A DNA stretch of 64,000 bases from Smithella sp. PtaU1.Bin162 (GTDB lineage: Bacteria; Desulfobacterota; Syntrophia; Syntrophales; Smithellaceae), in NCBI GenBank assembly GCA_002068015.1, contig MVRV01000029.1, positions 114,426 through 178,425 on the forward strand, given 5' to 3'. Positions 614-46,730 of the stretch are shown here, one piece after another. A program made the position numbers and the translations under genes. The stretch's first letter is position 1; each line of letters starts with the position of its first letter. The notes under the pieces are model-generated. The model saw nothing but the letters and a program-made list of their open reading frames with translations. It searched no databases and had not been told where the DNA came from.

Positions 614-3124
614 TTATTCTTCGGTTTCTTCCGGTGCCGGTTCAGAATCGGCTTCATCCATGCCGTTGCCGTTTGTACCTTCGTCTTTATCTTCGCCTTC
701 GGAGGTCGTGCGGGCGACGCCGACCAATTTTTCTTCCGGATCAAGTTCAATCAACTTGACGCCTTGAGTAACACGATGATTGACCGGCACTTCCTGGACC
801 TTAAGCCTGATGACTTTTCCGGCATTGCTGATCAGCATAATATTTTCTTCTCCGGTAACCTGGAGCACTCCGGAGACATTGCCCACTTTGGGAACCGTCT
901 TTAAATTCATCGTCCCTTTCCCGCCGCGGGTTTGTACGCGGTATTCTTCGATAGGTGTGCACTTGCCGAAGCCGTTTTCGGAAACGGTCAGCATAAACGT
1001 TCCGCTCGCGGGAATTTCCACGCCGATGACATCATCGCCTTCATCCAGATTGATGCCCCTCACACCGCGGGCTGTCCGGCCCATGTCACGGACGTCGTCT
1101 TCTTTGAAACGGATTGCCATGCCAAGTCTTGTGGCCAGGAATATATCCTGATTCCCCATCGTCAGATGAACATCAACCAGTTCATCGCCTTCATCAATCG
1201 ATAAGGCAATTATCCCGCCGGACCGTGGATTGGAATAAGCGGCAAGATCCGTTTTCTTGATTACGCCTTTTTTCGTCACCATCACCACAAACTTATCGGC
1301 GGCAAATTCACGCACCGGCAAGGTCGCGCTCACCCGCTCGCCCGGAGCCAAATTCAGCAGATTGACGATCGCCTTGCCTTTAGCGGCGCGGCCCGCCTGC
1401 GGCAGCTGATAAACCTTGAGCCAGTGAACCTTTCCCGTATTGGTAAAGACAAGCAGGTAATTATGTGTCGAGGCAATGAAGATTTTTTCCACAAAATCTT
1501 CTTCCTTTGTACCCATACCCATTTTGCCGCGTCCACCTCGATGTTGGCTTTTATAAAGACTTACGGCGTTTCTTTTAATGTAGCCGCCATGGGAAATAGT
1601 AACCATCATATCTTCTTCGACAATCATGTCTTCAATATCAATATCTTCACTGCTGGCGACAATTTCCGTCCGGCGCTCATCGCCGTAACGTTCTTTTATT
1701 TCCAGAAGTTCCTCCTTGATTACCTGCAGCACTTTTTGCGGATCCGCCAGAATACCGGCCAGCTTAGCAATAAGCTTGGTTACCTCAGCGTACTCTTCAT
1801 CAATCTTTGCCCGTTCCAGACCGGTCAGGCGTTGCAGTCGCATTTCCAGAATGGCCTTGGCCTGAATTTCCGATAATTTAAACTTTGCACACAAGGCTAC
1901 CGACGCATCGACAGCGTTTTTCGATGCCTTGATCACTTTAATAATTTCATCAATATTATTTAAGGCGATAATGTAGCCTTCCAAAATGTGCGCCCGTTCC
2001 TTGGCACGGGCCAGATCAAATTGCGTGCGTCGGACTACTACATCCTGCCGGAAGGCAACGAATTTCTCGAGAACCTCCTTGAGATTAAAAACCTGCGGAC
2101 GTCCTTCGGAAATTGCCAGCATGTTAATACCGAAGGAAACTTCCATTTGCGTAAATTTATAAAGCTGATTAAGAATGACCGCGGAATTCTCATCACGCTT
2201 GAGATCGATGACTACGCGGATACCTTCACGGTCCGACTCGTCACGAAGATCCGCAATACCACCGATTTTTTTATCGCGCACCAGTTCAGCTATTTTTTCG
2301 ATCAGCGATGCCTTGTTGACCTGATAAGGCAACTCGGTGACAACAATTGTTTCCCGGTCGTTGCGGGCATTCTTTTCAATCAGCGCCCGCGCCCGCACAC
2401 GGACAATGCCGCGACCTGTTTTATAAGCAGCTAAAATGCCTTCGCGGCCATTAATAAAACCGGCCGTTGGAAAATCCGGTCCGGGAATATGACGCATCAG
2501 TTGCTCGATGGTAATTTCCGGATTTTGAATGAGGGCAATGGTACCGTCAATGATTTCGGTAAGATTGTGGGGTGGAATATTGGTTGCCATACCGACGGCA
2601 ATACCTGATGTTCCGTTCAACAGTAATAGTGGCAGGCGCGTTGCGAGAATTGACGGCTCCGTCAAAGATTCATCATAATTAGGCACATAATCGACCGTAT
2701 TTTTCTCCAGGTCAGCCATTACCTCGTCGGCAATACGCGATAAGCGGCTTTCCGTATAACGCATGGCTGCAGGAGGATCACCATCAATCGAACCGAAATT
2801 ACCCTGTCCATCAATCAGCATGTAACGCAAAGAAAAATCCTGTGCCATGCGCACCATAGTGTCATAAATTGCTGCGTCGCCGTGCGGATGATATTTCCCC
2901 ATAATATCACCTACTACGCGGGCACATTTCTTATATGGTTTATTGTGACGGTAACCCATTTCATACATAGAATATAAAATGCGTCGATGGACCGGTTTGA
3001 GTCCGTCACGTACATCGGGCAGCGCCCGGCCGATGATAACACTCATGGAGTAATCCATGTATGATTTCTTCATTTCATCTTCTATATTCACCAGCGTTTG
3101 CTTATGGTGGATATCTCGTTCCAT
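614..3124 (-). CDS. gyrA: DNA gyrase subunit A
   Basis: Full-length GyrA homology, including the [21 protein letters not shown] region and the catalytic Tyr region AAMRYTE. I prefer the ATG at 3124, which is preceded by GAGAGGAAGG, over the GTG at 3175 used in the ORF track. The C-terminal tail is acidic (EGEDKDEG...EETEE). Confidence 0.97.
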
Positions 3125-3200
3125 TTTGTTCCTTCCTCTCTTCGGATTAACCAAGCCGGCAGTTTTTTCCGGCACAATCGTTATGTTTTCTCGGGCGTAG

Positions 3201-5621
<2,421 letters not shown>

Positions 5622-5644
5622 TTATTGTAATTGAACTTTCATAA

Positions 5645-6754
5645 CTAAATTTTAAGCGGCATGATAATGCACAAAAAATTATCATTATCCGCAGGCTTAA
5701 TTACAGATGGTTTTAATCCCTGACCAACCTCAAATAAAATACTGTCTCCATTTATTACAGATATTGCATCTATAAGATAATTGACATTAAATCCGACATC
5801 TAAATCATCGCCGCTGTATTTAATATCTATTTCCTCCATTGCTTCTCCGACATCAAGGTTTGTTGAATTCAGTGTCATCTTTCCTGTGGAAAAAGATAGA
5901 ATTACTCCACTGTAACGCTCTGAAGACACCACATTCATCCTTTTTAAAGCATGAAGGAAAGGCTCCTTCTCCAACACCACACCAATTCCTTTTTCCGCCG
6001 GAATTACTCTTTTATAGTCAGGGTAATCCGCATCCACCAAACTTACCTTTAAGACCGTATTTTCCGTTCTTAAGATCAACATATTCTTATGCATGCCGAT
6101 TCCCACATTTTCATTTTCATCAATTATTTTTTTTATTTCCATTAAACCCTTACGGGGAACAATAACACCTTTTGTTATTTCTTGAAAAATCTCCGATGCT
6201 TCACCTTTAGCCAAAGCCAACCTATGACCATCAGTAGCTACCATTCTAAAAAAACAATTATTTCCATCCGATCCATCCTCCAATAAAACTCCATTCAAAT
6301 TTTTTCTCATTTCATCTGTAGCCATAGCAAATGACGTCTTAGTAATTAAATCTTTAATCACACTACCGGAAATATTATAAAATTTAACATCACTATCATC
6401 ACTGATACTGGGAAAATCATCTGCCGGCAAACCGGGAATCTTATAAACAGCCCTCTGGCATGATATCTTTACAATATTATTAATCTTTGTAAAATTAATT
6501 ACTTCCCCTTGAATTTCTCTGACCATTTCATAGAGTTTTTTTGCCGAAAGAGTTATTTCTCCCTTTTCCGCCACCTCTGCATCATAATAGGAAATCAAAC
6601 TAATCTCCCTGTCCGTCGCGACAATTTTCAATTTACCTACTTCTCCGGTGAGAAGTATATTATTCAAAATAGGCATGGTTGTTTTTTTCTCAACAATTCC
6701 CAATGTTTTTTGAATACCATCCAGAAAGGTGTTTCTATTTATTTTAATCTCCAT
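5645..6754 (-). CDS. dnaN: DNA polymerase III beta sliding clamp
   Basis: 369 aa with a three-domain clamp-like sequence. It occupies the conserved position between dnaA and gyrB, and RBS GGGGGAAGG lies upstream. Confidence 0.95.
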   Translation of the reverse strand: MEIKINRNTFLDGIQKTLGIVEKKTTMPILNNILLTGEVGKLKIVATDREISLISYYDAEVAEKGEITLSAKKLYEMVREIQGEVINFTKINNIVKISCQRAVYKIPGLPADDFPSISDDSDVKFYNISGSVIKDLITKTSFAMATDEMRKNLNGVLLEDGSDGNNCFFRMVATDGHRLALAKGEASEIFQEITKGVIVPRKGLMEIKKIIDENENVGIGMHKNMLILRTENTVLKVSLVDADYPDYKRVIPAEKGIGVVLEKEPFLHALKRMNVVSSERYSGVILSFSTGKMTLNSTNLDVGEAMEEIDIKYSGDDLDVGFNVNYLIDAISVINGDSILFEVGQGLKPSVIKPADNDNFLCIIMPLKI

Positions 6755-6912
6755 ACCTTCCCCCTGTGTTTTATTATTTATTATTTTTTCTTTATATATA
6801 TAAAACTAGTATTAGTAATATATGCCTGTTTATATGTTGATTAAATATATTTTTGTAATAATTTCAGTATTATATTTTATATATAACTGTGGAGAACGAA
6901 TATATTAAAACT
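6755..6912. other. candidate oriC / DNA-unwinding region in the dnaA-dnaN spacer
   Basis: 158-bp spacer that is overwhelmingly A/T. It has a DnaA-box-like TGTGGAGAA (6888-6896, reverse complement TTCTCCACA, 1 mismatch to TTATCCACA) and TGTTGATTA (6835-6843). A run of NAN triplets TAG-TAT-TAG-TAA-TAT (6807-6821) sits next to a short GCC cluster. Confidence 0.5.
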
Positions 6913-8262
6913 TTAATTATTGTTGGTTAAATTGTTCTCAATTTCCTGAATTAAAAGTTTTAACTTATTATCCGACTCTATTCCTTTTAATATTTTATTA
7001 TTAGCATAAATAACTGTTGAATGATCACGATTTCCTATTTTTTGACCGATGTCAGGAAATGATTGATTGGTTATTTTTCTGGCCAAATACATAGTTATTT
7101 GTCTGGCTAATACCATATTTTTATTCTTATTATGTGATTTTATATCAGATATTTTTATATTTAATTTTCCTGCAACCAGTTTTATAATTTCATCAATACT
7201 TACTTCTCTCTTTTCATTATGTTTTAGTAATTTTCTTAAAACTTCTTTAACAAGATCAAGATTAATTTCTCTTCCTGTAAGAGAAGAATAGGCACATATT
7301 CTTACTAAAAATCCTTCCAGTTCACGGATATTTGATTCTACTTGGGAAGCAATATAATGAGCAACATTACCTGGTAGAGATATTTTATTTTCCTGCATTT
7401 TTTTTTCGATGATGGCTATTTTAGTTTCAATCTCCGGCGGTTGAATATCGGCAATTAATCCCCATTCAAACCTTGATCGTAATCTTCCCTCTAAATTAGG
7501 AATATCTTTTGGAAATTTATCACTGGTAACAACTATTTGCTTTCCTGAATCGTGTAAAGTGTTAAAAGTATGAAAAAATTCTTCCTGTGTACGTTCTTTA
7601 CCCGCCAGAAAATGAATATCATCAATTAATAAACAGCCGATATTTCGGTACCTTTCTCTAAACTTAGGCATCCGGTCGTAACGAATGGAATTGATCATTT
7701 CGTTCATAAATTCCTCAGCTGATAAGTATAATACATGCAAATCCGGATGAGTTGATACCGTCAATAACCCAATGGCATTCAGTAAGTGGGTTTTACCAAG
7801 TCCTGATCCACCGTAGATAAAAAGAGGGTTATAATTTTTTGCCGGTTGCTTGGAGACGGCGATGGAGGCGGCATGGGCAAATTGATTACAAGGACCAACG
7901 ACGAACCTTTCAAAAGTGTAATTACCGTTCAATGGAGATAAATATTTGGTTTTATTATCTATTACAGTTGAACTTTTTGTATGTTCGGATATTTTTTCAG
8001 TAGCTTGGGGCTTTTTTTCCTTCTCTTTGGAAAGTACGAATTCAACGTCAATTTCCAGCCCGACAATATGTTCCAGAGAATGCTTGATTGTAGAGAAATA
8101 ATTATCTAAAAGCCAGTCTTTAAAAAACTTATTGGGAACGGCAAGTTGAACACACCGGTCTTCCAGAGAAACAATCTTAATCGGTTTTATCCAGGTATCA
8201 AAATTTTGTTTACTTAATTTATCTTGAATAATTTTAGTAGTTTTATCCCAGAGAGCTTCCAC
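6913..8262 (-). CDS. dnaA: chromosomal replication initiator DnaA (GTG start)
   Basis: 449 aa with Walker A GGSGLGKTHL, the sensor region, and C-terminal DNA-binding domain motifs (HSTVIYA). The start codon is GTG at 8262. Confidence 0.97.
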   Translation of the reverse strand: MEALWDKTTKIIQDKLSKQNFDTWIKPIKIVSLEDRCVQLAVPNKFFKDWLLDNYFSTIKHSLEHIVGLEIDVEFVLSKEKEKKPQATEKISEHTKSSTVIDNKTKYLSPLNGNYTFERFVVGPCNQFAHAASIAVSKQPAKNYNPLFIYGGSGLGKTHLLNAIGLLTVSTHPDLHVLYLSAEEFMNEMINSIRYDRMPKFRERYRNIGCLLIDDIHFLAGKERTQEEFFHTFNTLHDSGKQIVVTSDKFPKDIPNLEGRLRSRFEWGLIADIQPPEIETKIAIIEKKMQENKISLPGNVAHYIASQVESNIRELEGFLVRICAYSSLTGREINLDLVKEVLRKLLKHNEKREVSIDEIIKLVAGKLNIKISDIKSHNKNKNMVLARQITMYLARKITNQSFPDIGQKIGNRDHSTVIYANNKILKGIESDNKLKLLIQEIENNLTNNN

Positions 8263-8285
8263 AAATCAACCTTTTATAAACAAAG

Positions 8286-8305
8286 TTATCAACATCTGTT
8301 GATAG
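8286..8305. promoter_or_regulatory. inverted pair of DnaA-box-like sites upstream of dnaA
   Basis: TTATCAACA (8286-8294) and TGTTGATAG (8297-8305) form the palindrome TATCAACA-TC-TGTTGATA, 24-43 nt upstream of the dnaA GTG. Each half has 1-2 mismatches to TTATCCACA. Confidence 0.45.
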
Positions 8306-8324
8306 AGTATTAAGGGAAATAATA

Positions 8325-9176
8325 TTATTTTAAATCGTCCAGAATGAGACCAGCCAGACGATTTAATTCATCCAAAGACGTAAAGCGAACCTCGATGGCT
8401 CCTTTTTTAGAGCTGCCTTTTATTTGAACTCTGGCCATGAATTTACGAGCCAGAGCCTTTTCCAGATCCGCCAGATAACGGTCTTTAAGAATAGCCTTTT
8501 TACCTGGTTGTTTTTTAAGTTTCTGTATTAACAACTCTGTTTCCCGGACATTCAATCCTTTTTTAAAAATCATCTCCAGCGTTTTGTTTTGTTCATCCAG
8601 GGAGGAAAGTGACAGCAGGCAGCGGGCGTGGCCGGAAGTGATTTTTTTTTCCACTAAAGAAGTTTTTGCCCGGGCCGGCAATTTTAAAAGCCGGATTGTA
8701 TTGGCTATTGTAGAGCGATCGCGGCCAACACGCGCAGAAATTTCTTCCTGAGACAGGCCGAATTTTTCGCTCAGTGTCAAATAGGCATTCGCTTCTTCCA
8801 GCGGATTTAATTCTTCCCGCTGAATGTTTTCGATGAGCGACATTTCCGCCGCTTCCATGTCTGTCGCTTCGCGAATAACAATGGGTACATCTTTTAAACC
8901 TGCGGCCTGAGCAGCACGCCAGCGGCGTTCACCCGCGATAATTTCATAACCATTGCCCTGCTTGCGCACAATTATCGGTTGAATAATGCCGTTTTTTTTA
9001 ATCGATGCAATAAGTTGTTTCTGGTCTTGATCGTTAAAGTTTTTCCGCGGCTGATAACGATTGGGCTGCAACTCTTCGATACCACACTTTACAAGAGGTG
9101 GTTGTCTGTCCGAGCCGGTAAGCAGATCGGGAAACATGGCACCCAGTCCTTTACCTAGTGCATTTTTTTGTGCCAT
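8325..9176 (-). CDS. parB: chromosome partitioning protein ParB/Spo0J
   Basis: 283 aa with the ParB box GERRWRAA and an HTH region. It directly abuts parA. Confidence 0.93.
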   Translation of the reverse strand: MAQKNALGKGLGAMFPDLLTGSDRQPPLVKCGIEELQPNRYQPRKNFNDQDQKQLIASIKKNGIIQPIIVRKQGNGYEIIAGERRWRAAQAAGLKDVPIVIREATDMEAAEMSLIENIQREELNPLEEANAYLTLSEKFGLSQEEISARVGRDRSTIANTIRLLKLPARAKTSLVEKKITSGHARCLLSLSSLDEQNKTLEMIFKKGLNVRETELLIQKLKKQPGKKAILKDRYLADLEKALARKFMARVQIKGSSKKGAIEVRFTSLDELNRLAGLILDDLK

Positions 9177-9944
9177 TTACAATCCTCGTTGAAGTATTTC
9201 CTGCGCCAGTTCCATATATGTGATGGCTCCGCGCGATTTAATGTCATAAAGTATTATGGGTAATCCATGACTGGGGCTTTCCGAAAGCCGGACATTGCGT
9301 GGTATTACCGTTTGGAATACCTTATTGCCGAAATGTTTACGCACATCTTCGCTGACCCGGTGAGAAAGCAAATTACGCGCATCAAACATGGTCAGCAATA
9401 TACCTCCTAAAGATAAGCGTGGATTTAATTGGGCTTGCACCAATTTTACGGTGTTCAACAAATAACCTAATCCCTCCATTGCAAAGTACTCGCACTGCAG
9501 GGGAACTATCAGATAGTCGGAAGCGACCAGGGCATTGATTGTCATCACTCCCAATGACGGTGGACAGTCAATTACTATAAATTCATAGCTCCTGTCCATT
9601 GATTTTAATAAATGCCGCAGCCGTACTTCCCGTTCTTCGACATTGACAAATTCAACTTCCAGGCCGATCAAATCCTGATTCGCCGGAATTACATCAAGGT
9701 GTGGTATCTCCGTAGAAAAAATAACTTTTTCCAGCGGTTCTTGACCGATCATGGCGGAATATAAATTTTTGGTCCGGGATGCGCTGCGATCTATTCCCAT
9801 GCCGCTTGACGTATTACCCTGGGAATCACCGTCAATAAGCAGCGTTTTTTTTTCGGCGGCAGCCAGAGAAGCAGATAAATTAATCGCGGTGGTCGTTTTA
9901 CCGACCCCACCTTTTTGATTCGCTATACATATAATATTATTCAT
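9177..9944 (-). CDS. parA: chromosome partitioning ATPase ParA/Soj
   Basis: Deviant Walker A motif KGGVGKTT. I prefer the ATG at 9944 (MNNIICIANQKGGVGKTT) over the TTG at 9983 in the ORF track. Confidence 0.93.
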   Translation of the reverse strand: MNNIICIANQKGGVGKTTTAINLSASLAAAEKKTLLIDGDSQGNTSSGMGIDRSASRTKNLYSAMIGQEPLEKVIFSTEIPHLDVIPANQDLIGLEVEFVNVEEREVRLRHLLKSMDRSYEFIVIDCPPSLGVMTINALVASDYLIVPLQCEYFAMEGLGYLLNTVKLVQAQLNPRLSLGGILLTMFDARNLLSHRVSEDVRKHFGNKVFQTVIPRNVRLSESPSHGLPIILYDIKSRGAITYMELAQEILQRGL

Positions 9945-10034
9945 TATTTTATAAGGAGCGGCCCGGAAAGATCCCCAAGCCAAACTGCCGTTACACCTAG
10001 CATAAAAAAGTTATTTTTAGAAGGTTTTTTTACC

Positions 10035-10697
10035 TTATTTTGTCTTTTTTCCGACAATAATTTTTCGCGGGGAGCCGGAGCTGCTTTGAATTGTATTATA
10101 TTGAAATAATTGATAATAATTATAAGGAAAGGCCGTGGCATTTTGCGGTGAAAATTCACATTTAATATCACTGCCTTTGAGCGCAATTAGAGTGCCTCCC
10201 GGGACGAGAAAATATGTCCCGTAAGACAGCATCTCCGGCAGCTTGAAAGCTGCCCGGGAAATCATAATATCGAAAAAAAATTGCCAATTTTCGGCTTGCT
10301 GCAAAATTTCTACACGGTTTGCTAAAACGAAAGCGTCCGTCAGATTCAGCAAGCGGAGAATGTGTTTCAGGAAAGAAACTTTTTTGCGGTTTATTTCCAC
10401 AAGATAAAGCTTAAGGGAAGGCAGGGCGATTTTTAAGGGAATACCGGGAAAACCAGCGCCGCACCCTATATCTATAAGACGGGCGTCTTTTTTTTCAATG
10501 AAGTGCAAAGCCGTCAGAGAATCCTGAAAATGTCTGCCCACGATTTCCCGGGCCGACTTTGCGGAAATCAAATTTATTTTTGCATTCCACCGTAATAATT
10601 CCTGCTGATAGAGGTCAAATTGCGTGAGTTGTCCGGTACTTAAATTCCAGCCCATTTTTTGTGCCGCTAATGCCAATTCTTGCAGTTGATTTTCCAT
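10035..10697 (-). CDS. rsmG: 16S rRNA (guanine527-N7)-methyltransferase RsmG/GidB
   Basis: 220 aa with the SAM-binding motif DIGCGAGFPGIPL. It sits in the conserved position upstream of parAB. Confidence 0.9.
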   Translation of the reverse strand: MENQLQELALAAQKMGWNLSTGQLTQFDLYQQELLRWNAKINLISAKSAREIVGRHFQDSLTALHFIEKKDARLIDIGCGAGFPGIPLKIALPSLKLYLVEINRKKVSFLKHILRLLNLTDAFVLANRVEILQQAENWQFFFDIMISRAAFKLPEMLSYGTYFLVPGGTLIALKGSDIKCEFSPQNATAFPYNYYQLFQYNTIQSSSGSPRKIIVGKKTK

Positions 10698-17414: not shown

Positions 17415-18350
17415 ATGGATAACAAAATTATTATTACAGCGGCAATCACCGGTTCTGTTCATATCCCCACCATGAGCGACTATCTTCCCATAACACCGGA
17501 TCAGATTGTAGAAGATGCTGTTGTGGCACATGAGGCAGGTGCTGCTATTGCCCACATTCATGTCAGGAATCCTGAAAACGGCCTGCCTACATCCAGTCCT
17601 GAACTTTTTATGGAAGTATGCAGCAGGATCAAAGCCAGATGCAATATTGTTCTGCTTCCCACCACCGGCGGCGGCATGAACCAGACCACGGAAGAAAAAC
17701 TGATCCCGATCAAACAATTGAAGCCGGAGATGTGCTCTTTTGATCCGGCGCCTTTTAATTTCGGCATATTTCAACTTGCCGGTCGTTTTGAAAAATATAA
17801 ATACGATTGGGAAAAAGATTACCTGGAGATGTGTAAAAATGTTACTTTCCGGCCGACTTTCAGTGATGACATGATCTACGCCAAGACCTTTCTGGAAATT
17901 GAGACGAAGCCGGAGCTGGAAATTTATGAACTGGGACATATCTCTTATGTCAAATGGCTTTTAGAAGAAAATCTTTTAAAAACCCCCGTTCATCTCCAGT
18001 TTGTTTTTGGTCCCATGGTCGGCTGGATGACTCCTTCCGTAAAACATCTGGTACTGATCCATGACGAAGCCATAGAAGTGCTTGGTGAAAATAATTTTAC
18101 CTGGTCGGTGGCAGCAGGCGGCCGTTTCCAGATACCTATAACAACAACTGCTATGGCTATGGGCGCTAAAAATGTCAGAGTTGGTCTGGAAGATTCCATC
18201 TATGCAGGAAAGAGTATTTTGGCCAAAACCAGCGCAGAACAGGTCAATATAGTAAAAAGAATTGCCAAAGAATTTAGTCTGGAACCGGCCAGCTCCGATG
18301 AAGCCAGACAGATTTTAGGATTAAAAGGGCTGGACAAGGTTAATTTTTAA
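17415..18350 (+). CDS. BKACE-family beta-keto acid cleavage enzyme (3-keto-5-aminohexanoate cleavage enzyme family, DUF849), paralog 1
   Basis: 311 aa with IIITAAITGSVHIPTMS, AAIAHIHVRNPENG and RVGLEDS motifs characteristic of the Kce/BKACE TIM-barrel Zn enzymes. Confidence 0.85.
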   Translation: MDNKIIITAAITGSVHIPTMSDYLPITPDQIVEDAVVAHEAGAAIAHIHVRNPENGLPTSSPELFMEVCSRIKARCNIVLLPTTGGGMNQTTEEKLIPIKQLKPEMCSFDPAPFNFGIFQLAGRFEKYKYDWEKDYLEMCKNVTFRPTFSDDMIYAKTFLEIETKPELEIYELGHISYVKWLLEENLLKTPVHLQFVFGPMVGWMTPSVKHLVLIHDEAIEVLGENNFTWSVAAGGRFQIPITTTAMAMGAKNVRVGLEDSIYAGKSILAKTSAEQVNIVKRIAKEFSLEPASSDEARQILGLKGLDKVNF

Positions 18351-25613: not shown

Positions 25614-26537
25614 ATGAAGGAAAAAACAATTGTTACGGCAGCTATTACAGGAAGCATCCATACGCCGACCATGTCCAAATTTTTACCGATTACCCCTCAG
25701 CAAATAGCCGATGATGCCGTTCTGGCCTTTGAGGCGGGAGCAGCGGTCTGTCATATTCATGTTCGCGATCCCAAAACAGGGCAGCCGGTCTCCGATATGA
25801 ATCTTTTTAAGGAAACGATCTCCAGCATAAAAAAAAGATGTAATATGATCGTTTGCATCACAACCGGCGGCGGCCTGGGTATGACATCCGAACAGCGTCT
25901 TATACCTGTTTCCACATTCAGTCCCGAGCTGGCTTCTTTCAATGCCGGTTCGGTAAATTTCGCCCTCTTCCATGCTTTGAGTAAATTTAAGAATTTTCAG
26001 CATGAATGGGAAAGCAAGTACCTGGCCTTTACGGAAGATTTTACTCTTTCCAATACCTTTAAATCCATGAAGGAGTTTGCCGAAACGTTCAATAAAAATA
26101 AAACCAAACCGGAATTCGAGGTTTATGATGCCGGTATGCTTAACAATATTGCCTTTCTCATTGAACAGGGTTACGTAAAAAAACCGGTTTACATTCAGTT
26201 TGTGATGGGTGTGCTGGGCGGAATTACCCCGAGTTCCGCAAACCTGCTGTTCCTGGTGGATTATGCTCAAAAACTGATTGGTGATTTTGTTTTTTCCGTC
26301 TGTGTGGCGGGTCGTGCACAATTCCCCCTATGTACCCAGTCGCTTTTGATTGGCGGTAACGTAAGGGTTGGGCTGGAGGATAACCTTTATCTGAACAAAG
26401 GAATCATGGCGAAGAGCAGCGCCGAGCAGGTGGCTAAAATTGTCCGTATCGCCAAGGAATTGGGCATTGAGCCCGCGACCCCGGATGAAGCGAGAAAAAT
26501 CCTGGGGCTGAAAGGACTGGAGAAGGTTAAATTTTAA
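25614..26537 (+). CDS. BKACE-family beta-keto acid cleavage enzyme, paralog 2
   Basis: 307 aa with IVTAAITGSIHTPTMS, AAVCHIHVRDPKTG and RVGLEDN motifs. It is clearly paralogous to 17415-18350. Confidence 0.85.
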   Translation: MKEKTIVTAAITGSIHTPTMSKFLPITPQQIADDAVLAFEAGAAVCHIHVRDPKTGQPVSDMNLFKETISSIKKRCNMIVCITTGGGLGMTSEQRLIPVSTFSPELASFNAGSVNFALFHALSKFKNFQHEWESKYLAFTEDFTLSNTFKSMKEFAETFNKNKTKPEFEVYDAGMLNNIAFLIEQGYVKKPVYIQFVMGVLGGITPSSANLLFLVDYAQKLIGDFVFSVCVAGRAQFPLCTQSLLIGGNVRVGLEDNLYLNKGIMAKSSAEQVAKIVRIAKELGIEPATPDEARKILGLKGLEKVKF

Positions 26538-26773: not shown

Positions 26774-26789
26774 TGGCCTGTTTATTGCT
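26774..26789 (+). promoter_or_regulatory. sigma-54 (-24/-12) promoter upstream of the hybrid kinase
   Basis: TGGCCTGTTTATTGCT has GG-N10-GC spacing that is exact, with a TTGCT -12 element. Confidence 0.5.
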
Positions 26790-26838
26790 GCTATCTTTAA
26801 TGTTGGGTATTTTTCCCGTGCGGATAATGTAACTGCAT

Positions 26839-26907
26839 AAATCAATGACACTCGCTGAAAACGAGTGCAATGAAGTTTGCAGAGGAAGTGGAATTGATCC
26901 CGAAAGC
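26839..26907 (+). repeat. 69-bp dispersed repeat, copy A
   Basis: It aligns without gaps to 40556-40624. By my hand count 59 of 69 positions are identical. It contains the hairpin CACTCG-CTGAAAA-CGAGTG. Confidence 0.7.
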
Positions 26908-27007
26908 GAGCGAGTTTGGGCGAAGCTATTCGGGATCCCGGGGTCATATTTCCCGCAGTTTGCTGCGGGGTCGTTCATTTGATAAAAAATCAGGGTATTC
27001 AATATTT

Positions 27008-29725
27008 ATGACTGATAGGAAAAGAAGACATCATATGAGCGGACAAAATCAGAATGTTTTTAAAATGTCTGAAGAACAATTCCGTCTTCTCTTTGAAGAT
27101 TCCAGTATCAGCATGACAGTGATCGGAGAGGATATGACGATCCTTCTCACGAATAAGGCATTTGAAAAGCTGACCGGTTGCCTCCAATCCCAGGTGGAAG
27201 GCAAAATGTGCTGGACGGAATTGATTGCCGCAGAAGAAGATATGCTGCGCATGAAGGAGTTCCACCGGCTGCGCAGAATCAATCCTTCTATGGCGCCGGA
27301 AATGTATGACAGCCGGATCAGAACCCGGGACGGGAGTATCCGCGATGTGACGATTCGTGTGATAATGGTTCCGGGGTCAACGTATAGTCTCGCTTCTCTT
27401 ACCGATGTGACTGAGAAAAAACAGACGGAAGAAAAATTTTCCAATATATTCAAAATGTTGCCGGTTGGTATATCCGTTGCCCGGGTGCAGGACGGAGCAA
27501 TTGTTGATACGAATGCGGGCTTTAAGGAAATTTCGGGATGGGAGTACAATGAAGTTATCGGGCGTACATCTTTGGAATTGAATTTTTGGGCCGATCCGGC
27601 TGATCGGATGCATCTGATCAACGAATTGCAAAACGGCCGGGCTGTGCGGCAGCGTGAAATATCTTTCCGCCGCAAAAACGGCGAAGTACATTATGGAATG
27701 TATTCGGCCCAGACAATGATCCTTGCCGGTGAGGAGTGCATTGTCTTTGTCCTGCAGGATATTACCCAGAACAAAGAAAAGGATAATATGTTGCGGCAAA
27801 AGGAAGAACAACTGCGTACCATAACTGCTAATATACCGGGTGCCATTTGCCGTTTCTACGCTAAAGACAATGGAGACTGGGGGATGAGTTATGCAAGTGA
27901 GCGCCTGATGGAACTGTTCGGTATGCCCTCACCCATAAAAGGATTTTTCCCTGCCGCCACAGAGTTTATTTATGAAAAAGACAGGGAAGGATTTGTAGCG
28001 TCCGTCCGTAAATCGGTTGAAACCTGTACACCCTGGGATTTTGAAGGCAGGATTGTCAAGCCTTCCGGAGAAATAAAATGGTTTCATGGTTTGGCCACAC
28101 CGAAAAGGCTTCCGGACAGCATCATTTTTGACGGGATGTTGCTCGACATTACGGAACGCAAGCAGGCGGAGGAAAAATCCCGTCAGTCGGAAGAAAAATT
28201 TACAGAAGTCTTTATGATGTCGCCGGACATGGTTGCCATTACCAGAATGGAAGACGGCCATATTATTGATGTTAATATCGGATTTGAAGAGATGACGGGA
28301 TGGCAGCGTAGTGAAGTTATCGGGCGCACTTCTTTAAGTCTCGATTTCTGGGTGGAGACGGCACAACGGGATCTGATGGTGCAGGAATTAAAAGCAGGCC
28401 GGGAAGTGGTGCGCTACGAAATATCCTTCCGGCGCAAGGACGGGATGTTGCAGACCGGTGTCTATTCCGCCCGATCCCTGATTTTGGGAGGTGAAAAATG
28501 TCTTCTTTTTATAATGCAGAATATCACCGAAAAGAAACGGCTGGAGGAGGAGCGCCGCAAACTGGAGCAGCAATTGTATAAGTCGCAAAAAATGGATGCA
28601 ATCGGGCAACTGGCCGGCGGTGTAGCGCATGATTTCAACAATATCCTCACCGGCATTCAGGGTAATGTATCGCTGATGCAGATGGAAATTGCACAAGAAC
28701 ATCCTCATTATCAGCGTTTGAGCCGCATTGAGGAACAGGTAAAGCGCGGTGCAAACCTGACAAGGCAGCTTCTCGGGTTTGCCCGGGGAGGCAAATATGA
28801 TGTCCGGATTATATCCGTCAATGAACTGATCCGGAAAAGCTCCCAATTTTTTCTGGAAGCCAGGAAAGAGATTGAAGCGGATATGGAGTTGCAGGAAAAC
28901 CTTTATTCGGTGGAGGCTGATGCCGGGCAAATCGAACAGGTGCTGATCAATATTTATATCAATGCCGCACAGGCCATGCCGGGCGGTGGCAGGCTGCATA
29001 TTCAGACGACCAATATGCAATTAAGGGAAGAGGAAGCTTCCCATTATGGGCTGCGGCCGGGGAAATACATCAAAATTTCCATTACCGATTCCGGAAAGGG
29101 TATGGAACAAAACACGCTGGCCAGAATATTTGAGCCGTTTTTTACCACAAAAGCTCAGGAAGGCGGCACCGGTTTGGGACTTGCTTCATCCTATGGCATT
29201 GTCCGCAATCATGGAGGTATCATCAATGCCTACAGCGAACCGGAACGGGGTTCGACATTCAATATCTATCTTCCGGCAACAGGCGATGAACTGGAAGAGA
29301 TTAACCGGGCTTACCAGGACGCAATGGTCTCCGGAGGAGGAGGCATCCTGCTTATTGATGATGAAAACATGATCCGGGATGTCGCCGGCGAGATGCTGCA
29401 ACTGCTGGGGTACACGGTATATCAGGCAGCCGGCGGAAAAGAAGCGATTAACGTTTATCTGACAAATAAAGATAAGATTGATCTGGTTATCCTTGATATG
29501 ATTTTACCGGGCATGAGCGGCGCTCAGGTTTTGCAGGAATTAAAGCGAATCACTCCCGATGTGAAGGTCATTCTTTCCAGCGGTTACAGCATGCAGGGCG
29601 AGGTGCAAAAGGTGATGGAATCCGGCTGCCTTGGTTTTATCCAAAAGCCTTACCTCTTTACGGAGCTCTCCAGAATAGTTAAGCAGGTGCTATATCCTGC
29701 AAAAGAGCGGACTCAAGAAGTTTGA
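27008..29725 (+). CDS. hybrid sensor histidine kinase (4 PAS, HisKA, HATPase_c, C-terminal receiver)
   Basis: It has PAS S-box repeats, the H-box GGVAHDFNNIL, N/G boxes (INAAQAM, DSGKGM, GTGLGL) and a receiver (ILLIDDE...DMILPGMSG). The start is 27008 or 27035. The ORF-track start at 26870 reads through the repeat and is unlikely. Confidence 0.9.
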   Translation: MTDRKRRHHMSGQNQNVFKMSEEQFRLLFEDSSISMTVIGEDMTILLTNKAFEKLTGCLQSQVEGKMCWTELIAAEEDMLRMKEFHRLRRINPSMAPEMYDSRIRTRDGSIRDVTIRVIMVPGSTYSLASLTDVTEKKQTEEKFSNIFKMLPVGISVARVQDGAIVDTNAGFKEISGWEYNEVIGRTSLELNFWADPADRMHLINELQNGRAVRQREISFRRKNGEVHYGMYSAQTMILAGEECIVFVLQDITQNKEKDNMLRQKEEQLRTITANIPGAICRFYAKDNGDWGMSYASERLMELFGMPSPIKGFFPAATEFIYEKDREGFVASVRKSVETCTPWDFEGRIVKPSGEIKWFHGLATPKRLPDSIIFDGMLLDITERKQAEEKSRQSEEKFTEVFMMSPDMVAITRMEDGHIIDVNIGFEEMTGWQRSEVIGRTSLSLDFWVETAQRDLMVQELKAGREVVRYEISFRRKDGMLQTGVYSARSLILGGEKCLLFIMQNITEKKRLEEERRKLEQQLYKSQKMDAIGQLAGGVAHDFNNILTGIQGNVSLMQMEIAQEHPHYQRLSRIEEQVKRGANLTRQLLGFARGGKYDVRIISVNELIRKSSQFFLEARKEIEADMELQENLYSVEADAGQIEQVLINIYINAAQAMPGGGRLHIQTTNMQLREEEASHYGLRPGKYIKISITDSGKGMEQNTLARIFEPFFTTKAQEGGTGLGLASSYGIVRNHGGIINAYSEPERGSTFNIYLPATGDELEEINRAYQDAMVSGGGGILLIDDENMIRDVAGEMLQLLGYTVYQAAGGKEAINVYLTNKDKIDLVILDMILPGMSGAQVLQELKRITPDVKVILSSGYSMQGEVQKVMESGCLGFIQKPYLFTELSRIVKQVLYPAKERTQEV

Positions 29726-40555: not shown

Positions 40556-40624
40556 AAATCAATGACACTTGCTGAAAACAAGCGAAGTGCGGTTTGAAGC
40601 GAAAGTGGAATTGATCCCGAAAGC
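40556..40624 (+). repeat. 69-bp dispersed repeat, copy B
   Basis: Gap-free alignment to 26839-26907. The hairpin arm carries a C-to-T change paired with a G-to-A change relative to copy A. Confidence 0.7.
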
Positions 40625-40640
40625 AGAGCCCGGCGAATGA

Positions 40641-40768
40641 GGCTGTGTCGCAATGTCATTCTGGAGGCTTTAGCCGAAGAATCTTTTTGTTCCAATGTTT
40701 TGTTTTTATTAGATTCTTCACTTCGTTCAGGATGACAAACATGTACATTTAACTATTGCGACACAGTC
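40641..40768. repeat. ~125-bp nested imperfect inverted repeat (REP/MITE-like or structured RNA)
   Basis: Outer arms are CTGTGTCGCAAT (40643-40654) and ATTGCGACACAG (40755-40766). Middle arms are GTCATTCTG (40655-63) and CAGGATGAC (40728-36). Inner arms are GAAGAATCT (40677-85) and AGATTCTTC (40711-19). Confidence 0.6.
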
Positions 40769-40939
40769 TCAAATGTGGGGTAAAACCCGGCTGATGCAGG
40801 GCGAAGCGGGAGCAGGCTGAGCTATCCGGTATCCAGTGGGTCATATTCTCCGCCCCTTGTGACGAATAGATTGAGGCAGAATCGGTATAATACCCCGCTG
40901 CTTGCGGCGGAATCGTCCATTTTGTAATGTTGAGAAACC

Positions 40940-41593
40940 ATGAAAGCTGAAAAGGAAAACAGTAATGAAGATAATGCCTTTTGCCGGAATATCTGCGGCA
41001 AAAGCATGAAATTGCTCATCGGCAATCTTATTGCTGAAGGTGTGCCCAAAGAAAAGCTGGTCCGTGCGTTGAAAAAGACCGATCCGGAACTGGAAACAAT
41101 TGTTGCAGCCATTCATGAGGAATGCAGGCGCAGTAGGCGAAAAGAAGATCAACATAAAACCTTCGAAGCAATGCGAAAAGATTATCTGACGAGAATTCTT
41201 ATTTACTATCTTAAAGAAAGCGATTCCATTGCCCATGCCGTTTATTTTCCCCGGCAATCATTCAAGATATTTGCCGATGCTGTCCGGAAACTGCTTGGGG
41301 AAAACATTCTGGAAGAGAAACAGCTCCAGTGTTATGTTGTTGTCAAGGACCACCAGGACGAAAGCGGCCGCATAAACTGGGACAAAATCTATGTGGATGA
41401 CCGGGCAAAACAGATTGCCTGGGATGTGCTTTTCCGCATCAGCATGGCTATGGCAGGATTGAGCGGCGAATGGTTCAAGGAATATATTGCCGATTATGCG
41501 AAAACTCACGGTGATTTTTACGGAGAGGGTATGGCGCATTATGTCCAGGAAAGGCTGGAGGGCATTGCCAAAACGTTCCGGCTGGATCGCTGA
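40940..41593 (+). CDS. hypothetical protein
   Basis: 217-aa ORF with ordinary composition and no motif I recognise. The start is uncertain (40940 or 41006). It is co-oriented with the downstream signalling genes. Confidence 0.5.
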   Translation: MKAEKENSNEDNAFCRNICGKSMKLLIGNLIAEGVPKEKLVRALKKTDPELETIVAAIHEECRRSRRKEDQHKTFEAMRKDYLTRILIYYLKESDSIAHAVYFPRQSFKIFADAVRKLLGENILEEKQLQCYVVVKDHQDESGRINWDKIYVDDRAKQIAWDVLFRISMAMAGLSGEWFKEYIADYAKTHGDFYGEGMAHYVQERLEGIAKTFRLDR

Positions 41594-41677: not shown

Positions 41678-42067
41678 ATGAGCGAACCGGTACGAATTCT
41701 TATTATTGATGATGAAGAATCATTTACATTCTTTGTGAAATTGAATCTGGAAACAGACCCGCGTTTTGCAGTTGTTACAGCCAACCGCGGAGAAGAAGGA
41801 TTGAAACTTGCGAAATCCATGAAACCGGATTTGATTCTCCTCGATATAATGATGCCCGGCATGTTCGGAACGGAGGTGGCCCAGAGTCTGCTCGCTGATG
41901 ATCATACTAAAGATATTCCCGTCATTTTTCTTTCTGCTGCCATCAGAAAAGAACAGGCTGAAAAAGATGGTGGTATGATCGGCGGACGGGATTTGATAGT
42001 CAAACCGGTTACGAAAGAGGAATTGACGAGCCGGATCGAAACGGCTCTGCGCTTGAAAAAGAAATAA
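41678..42067 (+). CDS. single-domain CheY-like response regulator (paralog 1)
   Basis: 129 aa with ILIIDDE, DLILLDIMMPGMFG and VKP motifs. Confidence 0.9.
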   Translation: MSEPVRILIIDDEESFTFFVKLNLETDPRFAVVTANRGEEGLKLAKSMKPDLILLDIMMPGMFGTEVAQSLLADDHTKDIPVIFLSAAIRKEQAEKDGGMIGGRDLIVKPVTKEELTSRIETALRLKKK

Positions 42068-46337: not shown

Positions 46338-46730
46338 GTGGGAAAACCTATCAATATCCTGGCTGTAGATGACGAAGAATCATTTACCTTTTTTGTAAAG
46401 CTGAATCTGCAAAATGATTCACGCTATGAATTCAACGTCACAACGGCCAACGGCGGAGAAGCAGGATTGAAACTGGCCAGGAAAATCAAACCGGATTTGA
46501 TTCTGCTTGACATAATGATGCCCGATATGAGCGGCACGGAGGTTGCCGAAAAGCTCCTGGAAGATCCCCGTACAAAAAGTATTCCCATCATTTTCATGAC
46601 TGCTGTAGTGCAAAAAGATGAAGTTGCGGAAGAAGGTGGCATCATGGGCGGTCGCGAATTTATCGCCAAACCGGTCGAAAAGGACGAGCTCATCGATCGG
46701 ATTGCCGCAACCCTGAATTTGCCGCGCTAG
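46338..46730 (+). CDS. single-domain CheY-like response regulator (paralog 2, GTG start)
   Basis: 130 aa, roughly 60% identical by eye to 41678-42067, with a shared DDEESFTFFVKLNL and KPDLILLDIMMP. RBS AAGGAGGG lies upstream. Confidence 0.9.
   Translation: MGKPINILAVDDEESFTFFVKLNLQNDSRYEFNVTTANGGEAGLKLARKIKPDLILLDIMMPDMSGTEVAEKLLEDPRTKSIPIIFMTAVVQKDEVAEEGGIMGGREFIAKPVEKDELIDRIAATLNLPR

Follow-up and report, generated by a model that had tools for sequence, protein, structure and literature searches.

A dispersed repeat beside two signalling operons of Smithella is probably the head of an ORF-less IS200/IS605-type mobile element

PATEs are known from haloarchaea and cyanobacteria. The term designates miniature inverted-repeat transposable elements (MITEs) derived from insertion sequences (ISs) of the IS200/IS605 family (PMC3119063). 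In IS608, the left cleavage site lies 19 nt from the hairpin (PMC3201880), and guide and cleavage site pair through A+16:T-3 and A+17:T-4 (PMC5934647). Members of the IS200/IS605 family show an orientation bias, towards the lagging-strand template (PMC5027513). Here we analyze a repeat in a 64,000-nt stretch of Smithella sp. PtaU1.Bin162 (contig MVRV01000029.1, positions 114,426 to 178,425), hereafter the window. A first-pass annotation, made from the sequence alone, had described it as a 69-bp dispersed repeat with a conserved hairpin, lying ahead of signalling genes, and had offered two options for it, a small RNA or leader element and a REP/MITE-type repeat family. The second option is the correct one. 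The repeat is not a private regulatory leader of two signalling operons; it is part of a dispersed mobile element, and we put at roughly 80% the probability that it is the 5′ head of a non-autonomous IS200/IS605-family MITE (or PATE) devoid of open reading frames (ORFs).

The two window copies of the repeat, 26839-26907 (copy A) and 40556-40624 (copy B), align without gaps and are identical at 59 of 69 positions (86%), as first reported. Their invariant blocks, AAATCAATGACACTYGCTGAAAAC and GTGGAATTGATCCCGAAAGC, occur twice each in the window, both times on the + strand, and had no matches in 100 dinucleotide-preserving shuffles, even with up to three mismatches tolerated. The full extent of the element was revealed by two loci of a diverged strain (L007 and L009), in which the spacer between a BKACE (beta-keto acid cleavage) gene and a kinase gene aligns over its full length with the window minus exactly 137 bp. 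The empty allele reads GCATAAA directly followed by TTGATAAAA, and the filled allele of the window reads GCATAAA-TCAATGAC...GTCGTTCAT-TTGATAAAA. In this one empty/filled pair, the junction shows no target duplication, and models in which TA or TTAA is duplicated are incompatible with the empty site. A sigma-54-like motif upstream and the kinase start codon are present in filled and empty alleles alike. Copy A had been placed within a leader transcribed from that promoter; since the motif and the kinase gene persist without the element in L007 and L009, it is not an intrinsic part of such a leader. The parts of copy A and its surroundings are as follows.

26837-26841, + strand: left flank ATAAA (insertion target), which L007 and L009 have in their empty sites.
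26842-26978, + strand: copy A, a complete mobile unit of 137 bp, TCAATGAC...GGGGTCGTTCAT, the segment missing in L007 and L009; the boundary is ambiguous by 1 nt (one T), such that 26843-26979 is also possible.
26842-26937, + strand: structured head of copy A (hairpins P1 and P2), found by covariance model R1, which was built from 19 minimal copies (83.5 bits, E = 1e-15).
26849-26890, + strand: P1, a long hairpin with 5′ strand 26849-26862 (CACTCGCTGAAAAC), loop 26863-26874 and 3′ strand 26875-26890 (GTTTGCAGAGGAAGTG).
26849-26867, + strand: the small hairpin CACTCG-CTGAAAA-CGAGTG described earlier, which competes with P1 for its 5′ strand.
26896-26937, + strand: P2, hairpin GATCCCGAAAGC / GCTATTCGGGATC, whose tip carries a variable insert (26908-26924 in copy A).
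26938-26978, + strand: IS200-type end module of copy A, consisting of CC-GGGGTCATATT, hairpin TCCCGCAG-TTTG-CTGCGGGG and tail TCGTTCAT.
26774-26789, + strand: sigma-54-like motif TGGCCTGTTTATTGCT (GG-N10-GC), as read from the sequence, 52 nt upstream of copy A; context, outside the element.
27008-29725, + strand: gene for a hybrid PAS histidine kinase/receiver (Pfam PAS, HisKA, HATPase_c and Response_reg), its start codon at 27008 lying 30 nt downstream of copy A; context, outside the element.

The 69-bp core was thus rightly recognized, and it makes up the first two thirds of the copy A head. Its leading AAA (26839-26841 and 40556-40558), however, is flanking DNA within the insertion target, and the repeat proper begins with T26842 in copy A and T40559 in copy B. 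Homology between the copies also continues beyond the 69 bp. In a gap-tolerant local alignment, 26918-26950 of A matches about 40799-40847 of B, and 26952-26986 of A matches about 40894-40928 of B, with the homology ending ...GGGGTCGTTCAT at 26978 in A and ...GGAATCGTCCAT at 40920 in B.

To what kind of element these boundaries belong is indicated by the 3′ part of the unit. When a 204-nt copy was compared with plasmids by blastn, only its last 32-38 nt matched, at 90-97% identity, in Xenorhabdus, Pantoea, Citrobacter, Edwardsiella and Pseudanabaena. On pDSJ05 of Pantoea stewartii, the match lies directly 3′ of an annotated IS200/IS605 family transposase gene on the same strand, and the encoded TnpA belongs to Pfam Y1_Tnp (E = 7e-36). 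In Pantoea, Edwardsiella, Pseudanabaena, Megaera and Kovacikia alike, this right end immediately follows tnpA. Complete relatives were recovered from Megaera, Pseudanabaena and Kovacikia by tblastn with the Pantoea TnpA. On the left, these carry TTTAAT directly followed by C, 5-6 bases, GGGTxxAATTCCCC, a short TT-loop hairpin, a ribosome-binding site (RBS) and the ATG of tnpA; on the right, GATACCCCGCTGCTTGCGGCGGGGTxGTTCAT follows tnpA. In the Edwardsiella relative, tnpA and the right end are shared, and no recognizable left end is seen upstream. Window positions 26938-26970 align with the left end of the tnpA-carrying ISs; in this left-end alignment (A6), GGGTxATATTCCCCGC is conserved and is followed by a hairpin with compensatory variants, GCCGC/GCGGC, GCCCC/GGGGC, GCAG/CTGC and GCGGC/GCCGC. 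Because the region after P2 aligns with the IS left end and the last 30 bases are the right end, we regard the family as an ORF-less IS200-group derivative. In the end module of copy A, the left-end and right-end hairpins are merged into one.

The head is what sets the element apart from these relatives. Model R1 found no match in seven canonical IS/MITE loci. The head sits between the target and the first base of the canonical left end, where an IS200/IS605-type insertion would land, and it may have originated by insertion, by capture of flanking DNA, or as a native part of an unsampled Smithella IS. The element is, then, a known kind of mobile element with an unusual and well-supported structured extension. 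A literature search on IS200/IS605 MITEs with this target returned nothing specific.

Several further observations concern the relatives themselves. A Xenorhabdus bovienii megaplasmid carries a head-less MITE of about 105 nt (L146:1440-1536), with left and right end after TTAAAT, for which the record holds no annotation. On pDSJ05, tnpA starts 6 nt past a DNA adenine methylase gene (L145:1054-1060) with no recognizable left end, and the locus looks like a 5′-truncated IS copy. One TnpA relative is labelled 'ISMac7 family' by PGAP.

The first-pass annotation had proposed counting copies across the genome and its relatives, and the count yields a multi-copy family in metagenome contigs and in genomes representing single species. 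Searching public metagenome contigs for exact matches to the 20-mer GTGGAATTGATCCCGAAAGC gave 38 loci, 37 of them with the whole 5′ region; 18 of these 37 are spread over 12 large contigs (∼1.9 Mb) from metagenome 3300022181, in which a near-identical version of the window is present as well. In a scan of one genome per species with an 18-mer, 36 of 89 loci proved to be family members, the others being chance matches in coding sequence. The 36 members come from nine metagenome-assembled genomes (MAGs) labelled Smithella, Syntrophaceae or 'delta proteobacterium' (at most 8 in any one of them) and from two Bacteroidales MAGs. In the window, model R1 detected only copies A (83.5 bits) and B (59.7 bits); in the fetched loci it detected about 12 further diverged copies without the exact 18-mer, so the exact-match counts underestimate the family. 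Viral contigs scanned with the 18-mer gave chance coding matches only, and blastn against phage gave no match.

Complete copies measure 122-227 bp, start TCAATGAC and end GGGGT(C/T)GTTCAT. The copies terminate in GGGGTYGTTCAT, and the ends of copy A recur in 24 other copies. The modules follow a fixed order: P1, GAATT, P2 (whose tip may hold nested hairpins), GGGTCATATTCCCC, a short hairpin, an optional GGAG/GAGG plus ATG, a final GC-rich hairpin and eight bases. In full copies (∼200 bp), the left-end short hairpin is followed by an RBS-like GGAG/GAGG and ATG, and the right end consists of GATA, hairpin CCCCGCTGC-TT-GCGGCGGGG and TYGTTCAT. In ∼0.5 Mb of family loci, no right-end module lacking a head was found. 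On the left flank, the target consensus is TTAA(A/G)T, with counts over 70 flanks of T52 T50 A52 A61 A48/G15 T66; the T after TTAA(A/G) can be assigned either to the target or to the element as its first base. Upstream of this consensus there is no conservation, and the right flank mostly begins with T.

These features bear on whether the repeat is an ordinary MITE mobilized by a DDE transposase, or a REP/BIME-type repeat mobilized by RAYT. Such elements, too, are multi-copy, intergenic, hairpin-rich and modular or mosaic; the ends of the Smithella units show weak inverted similarity (AATGAC.AC versus GT.GTTCATT), and automatic annotation at JGI calls some of the TnpA relatives 'RayT'. Yet the empty/filled pair shows no target-site duplication, and in 24 complete copies the left and right flanks are different, with no repeat common to both. 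The ends are asymmetric and match the left and right ends of IS200. No GTAG-type tetranucleotide is present, the units measure 120-230 bp rather than 20-40 bp and occur singly or in direct tandem instead of inverted pairs, and no rayT was seen in the window or the fetched loci. Moreover, the related TnpAs reside inside bounded, multi-copy ISs, as in Megaera, where one plasmid carries such an IS at six places. The empty site, the flanks and the IS-end homology already largely refute a DDE-type MITE or a REP, and we consider either very improbable. In the first-pass annotation, many copies in random orientation with target-site duplications had been associated with an ordinary MITE; the copies are indeed many, but their orientation is biased and no duplication accompanies them, and this combination is the signature of an IS200/IS605-type element.

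Heads also occur in direct tandem (L087:448-616 and downstream, L120:1574-1746 and L128:3755-3921), and at L087 the tandem heads are followed by four tandem copies of GTAACCTAAAGGTCACA(A/G). Diverged heads, ∼55% identical and with a fully Watson–Crick P1, were found with a different tail, a long hairpin GGGTAT...ATACCC and then GTG(G/A)TT (L128:3755-4000, L028:7515-7680 and, on the reverse strand, L065:4456-4529 and L120:1668-1746). This suggests that ends of different kinds can be joined to the head.

The anatomy of the family also clarifies the relationship between copy A and copy B, which had been thought to continue after the core into different hairpin modules. Because the A/B homology resumes past the variable stretch, the modules after the core are the same ones with indels. 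The 125-bp nested hairpin formerly assigned to copy B is a foreign insertion instead of a module of its own. Copy B comprises the following parts.

40559-40920, + strand: copy B, decayed, 362 bp, defined by local alignment with copy A and by an R1 match of 59.7 bits.
40559-40624, + strand: 5′ part of the head.
40821-40833, + strand: 3′ strand of P2.
40834-40864, + strand: left-end-like segment.
40890-40920, + strand: right end.
40635-40790, no strand assigned: foreign nested insertion inside P2, with inverted ends CTGTGTCGCAAT / ATTGCGACACAG and a flanking CCCGGC repeat.

The right end of copy B is mutated, reading AATA...GGAA...CCAT compared to GATA...GGGG...TCAT in the family. With AATA...CCAT and the stem GGGG changed to GGAA, the copy looks decayed. 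The nested insertion is not present in the same subfamily elsewhere (L014). It represents a second repeat, unrelated to the first, of which a 74%-identical copy was found at L045:4720-4856; its flanking CCCGGC(G/T) repeat may be a duplication. Three short-read contigs (L002, L003 and L006) break within it.

To assess the structure of the head, we used a MAFFT alignment (A4) of the 19 minimal copies. In P1, 96.9% of cells are paired and double-sided changes occur at 6 of 12 pairs; none of 500 shuffles reached the observed values, and the scores collapse when partner columns are slid. The stem is formed by CACT-CGCT-GA-AAAC pairing with GTTT-GA-AGCG-xx-AGTG, most copies having tandem G.A/A.G in mid-stem, and its variants include CAAATAAAAC/GTTTTATTTG, TGATTAAAAC/GTTTTAATCA and CACC/GGTG. 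P2 is 95% paired in the MAFFT alignment, and hairpins in its tip insert covary (CCCTGC/GCAGGG, TCCTGT/ACAGGA and TCCGGC/GCCGGA). On a larger, model-fitted alignment that includes diverged copies (A5), and which leans towards the covariance model, compensatory changes were seen at 12 of 12 pairs in P1 and 8 of 12 in P2.

Selection on structure, as proposed earlier, is real for the family, but it concerns P1 and P2 and not the small CACTCG/CGAGTG hairpin for which it was invoked. That hairpin is paired in 64.5% of cells in the 19 members, 447 of 500 shuffles are as good, and CGAATG variants in close relatives disrupt it with no compensation. P1 and the small hairpin are mutually exclusive. The double substitution that had been read as compensatory, C15 to T and G25 to A, is present in the sequence, but copy B has a further change of T to C two bases on, which creates an A.C mismatch in the same hairpin. 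Within P1, C15 to T gives a G.U wobble and G25 to A falls in the loop.

We considered whether the conserved region might instead encode a small protein. Copy A contains a 47-codon ORF (26845-26985), open from ATG ACA CTC to TGA, and codon 12, the Cys codon TGC in A, aligns with TGA in B, such that a selenoprotein could be imagined. Most copies, however, stop after 11 codons, at codon 12, the frame is broken by indels that are not multiples of three, no RBS precedes the ORF, and stems with compensatory changes account for the conserved part. We reject the small ORF or selenoprotein as hardly credible.

A more serious alternative holds that the head (P1-P2) is a functional RNA (a cis-acting leader, a 3′-untranslated-region element or a small RNA) for which an IS200-type element serves only as a carrier, whether the head hitch-hikes on it or was spread by it, its covariation reflecting RNA function. 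P1 and P2 covary strongly, unpaired motifs are conserved even in copies of ∼55% identity, and traits typical of RNA are present, namely tandem G.A pairs and, in the 3′ hairpin, a G(CUUG)C tetraloop. Copies of the head are retained at orthologous sites upstream of yicC (five MAG species) and thiD (two), where the IS ends have been lost. Moreover, 27 of 61 copies adjoin the 3′ end of a same-strand ORF, the mini-ORF of the head (ATG...TGA, 11 codons) starts 5-6 nt past the stop of the upstream ORF, and within a span of 40 nt the head carries stop codons in every frame, making it a candidate for insulation against read-through. Against this, the downstream genes are unrelated (kinase, yicC, thiD, glnA, nuoA and lspA), the element is dispensable at the kinase locus, and Rfam 15 gave no match at the gathering threshold over the 64 kb, and relaxing the limit to E = 10 around the two copies brought up noise only. 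Between yicC orthologues, most differences are wobbles or mismatches, and L055 has two A.C mismatches in P1, so no clear purifying selection is apparent after immobilization. All copies were found via the P2 18-mer, and since every copy was ascertained through P2, the apparent retention of the head is biased. Finally, G.U cells (43) barely exceed A.C cells (27), and covariation alone therefore does not distinguish folding of RNA from folding of single-stranded DNA. On balance, we view an RNA function as the source of the covariation as unlikely. A riboswitch or gene-specific leader was rejected, as the downstream genes are unrelated and related strains lack the element at this locus.

A broader form of this idea is that the head represents a previously undescribed structured nucleic-acid module, either a functional RNA delivered to gene 3′ ends (with an insulator, translational-coupling or regulatory role) or a new single-stranded-DNA left-end architecture. 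Stop-codon sites make up 2% of available non-coding target-like sites, compared to the 27 of 61 copies at ORF 3′ ends; this preference, together with the two tails and the two phyla, hints at something beyond a plain deletion derivative. We regard such a module as possible, albeit doubtful.

The position of copies relative to upstream ORFs takes two forms. In 16 of 61 copies, the TAA stop of a same-strand ORF (at least 100 codons) lies inside the target TTAAAT, and in 11 of 61 such an ORF reads into the element and stops at its TGA (+3 or +35), acquiring a new C-terminal tail. Loci with such ORF stops include L015, L037, L053 and L090, and L055, L071 and L085.

Returning to the IS200/IS605-type element, its properties suggest the following model. 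The tnpA gene would have been deleted from an IS, copy A being a reduced version with its left and right hairpins fused. A Y1 (HUH) TnpA acting in trans would excise the top strand as a single-stranded circle, and the circle would re-insert 3′ of TTAAAT, into single-stranded DNA on the lagging-strand template. A precise indel, the lack of duplication and a strand bias would all follow from such single-strand transposition by TnpA, a mechanism that, like the role of the head, we infer; the data themselves show the family with its ends and target, the indel, the homology to IS ends and the covariation. The compact fold of the head would bring the 5′ cleavage site near the transposase-binding hairpin, leaving ∼14-19 unpaired linker bases, a length near the 19 nt of IS608. 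Our best guess is that the head stems are kept since their folding brings the cleavage site within the hairpin's reach.

Two sets of data can be compared with this model. The first is the relation between the right-end guide and the last four bases of the element. Twelve copies combine GATA with TCAT and three combine AATA with TTAT, which fits the guide/cleavage-site pairing of IS608 (G1:C-3, G2:C-4 and G4:C-1), although only two states are represented and the fused short forms (TATT/TCAT) do not fit. The second is orientation. [quoted passage not shown]

A number of points weigh against the IS200/IS605-type interpretation. No transposase is encoded in the window, as noted before and as seen again with Pfam on 50 ORFs, and tblastn with IS200 TnpA and TnpAs of the clade found no Y1 transposase in the window or ∼1 Mb of fetched loci; among the exact-match loci, none is a tnpA-carrying copy with the head. 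A trans-acting TnpA partner is assumed because no Y1 gene was found in these sequences. A search for a Smithella partner by homology to the Kovacikia TnpA gave >7,600 matches, dominated at the top by cyanobacterial sequences. Copy A and other short forms have TATT before the fused hairpin, contrary to the guide rule, and it may be that these fused forms can no longer move. Selection against antisense insertions would produce the strand bias just as well. There is a single empty site (two assemblies, same allele), for which precise deletion and insertion are formally indistinguishable. Lastly, the IS200 model leaves the head unexplained, with its conserved unpaired motifs TCAATGA, GAATT and the P1 loop AAGCGAAGYG, and diverged heads occur with the different tail described above.

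IS110 elements with bridge RNA and TnpB/IscB elements with omega-RNA were rejected as candidates: the target is 5-6 nt only, no such genes are present, and the ends match the tnpA-only IS200 clade.

Other features of the window deserve mention. Its replication-origin region (614-10697, minus strand) carries gyrA, gyrB, dnaN, dnaA, parB, parA and rsmG/gidB. The coding strand switches at ∼10.7 kb, where a long run of plus-strand genes begins, and the sign of the GC skew changes at 8-10 kb. Two paralogous pairs are present, namely two BKACE genes (17415-18350 and 25614-26537) and two single-domain response regulators (41678-42067 and 46338-46730, 73-77% DNA identity). Several public contigs encode the BKACE protein whose gene lies just upstream of copy A. 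DnaA, GyrB and BKACE of the window are identical to proteins of the MAG Smithella sp. PtaU1.Bin162. A 217-aa ORF (40940-41593) that begins right after copy B has no Pfam match; an identical sequence is found on six public contigs, and in every case the response-regulator gene follows it.

What had looked like leaders of two signalling operons are, in our reading, mobile-element insertions, and regulatory interpretations must allow for ∼137 extra structured bases that sister strains lack. The element is a candidate cause of changes in C-termini and in operon coupling, and in uncultured syntrophs it provides a ready-made marker of strain-level polymorphism. It may also be a natural case of an IS200-type left end that tolerates or needs a 100-nt folded insert, which bears on the permissible distance of the cleavage site from guide and hairpin and is relevant to the re-engineering of IS608-type transposons.

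How the element relates to known systems can be set out from the more distant to the closer. REP/BIME, ERIC and Correia-type repeats are likewise structured, mosaic, intergenic, co-transcribed with their neighbours and often located at gene 3′ ends. The Smithella element differs from them in having ends and a target of the IS200 type, in units far longer than REP, and in lacking the TA or target-site duplication of Correia-type repeats. With PATEs, it shares an ORF-less fusion of left and right ends, target-specific insertion, absence of duplication and multiple copies; the Smithella family always carries the head, whereas the PATE-type example from Xenorhabdus is head-less. The IS200-group ISs with Y1 HUH TnpA have in common with it the TTTAAT/TTAAAT target immediately 5′ of the left end, the left-end motif GGGTxATATTCCCC with a short hairpin, a near-identical right end (GATACCCCGCTGCTTGCGGCGGGGTTGTTCAT), and the absence of both inverted terminal repeats and duplication. 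Unlike these ISs, the Smithella element lacks tnpA, of which an RBS-like motif and ATG are left over, has a structured head of 80-120 nt, and occurs in short forms with a single fused hairpin. IS608 and ISDra2 resemble it in inserting 3′ of a short specific sequence, in having the right cleavage site 8-10 nt 3′ of the right hairpin, and in the lagging-strand template bias; covariation of the 4 nt 5′ of the hairpin with the cleavage site may be a further common trait. Their target and hairpin sequences are different, and no tnpB or omega-RNA is found in the Smithella element. The left cleavage site of IS608 lies 19 nt from the hairpin, as compared to ∼105-140 nt in the Smithella element, where the distance is bridged by two hairpins.

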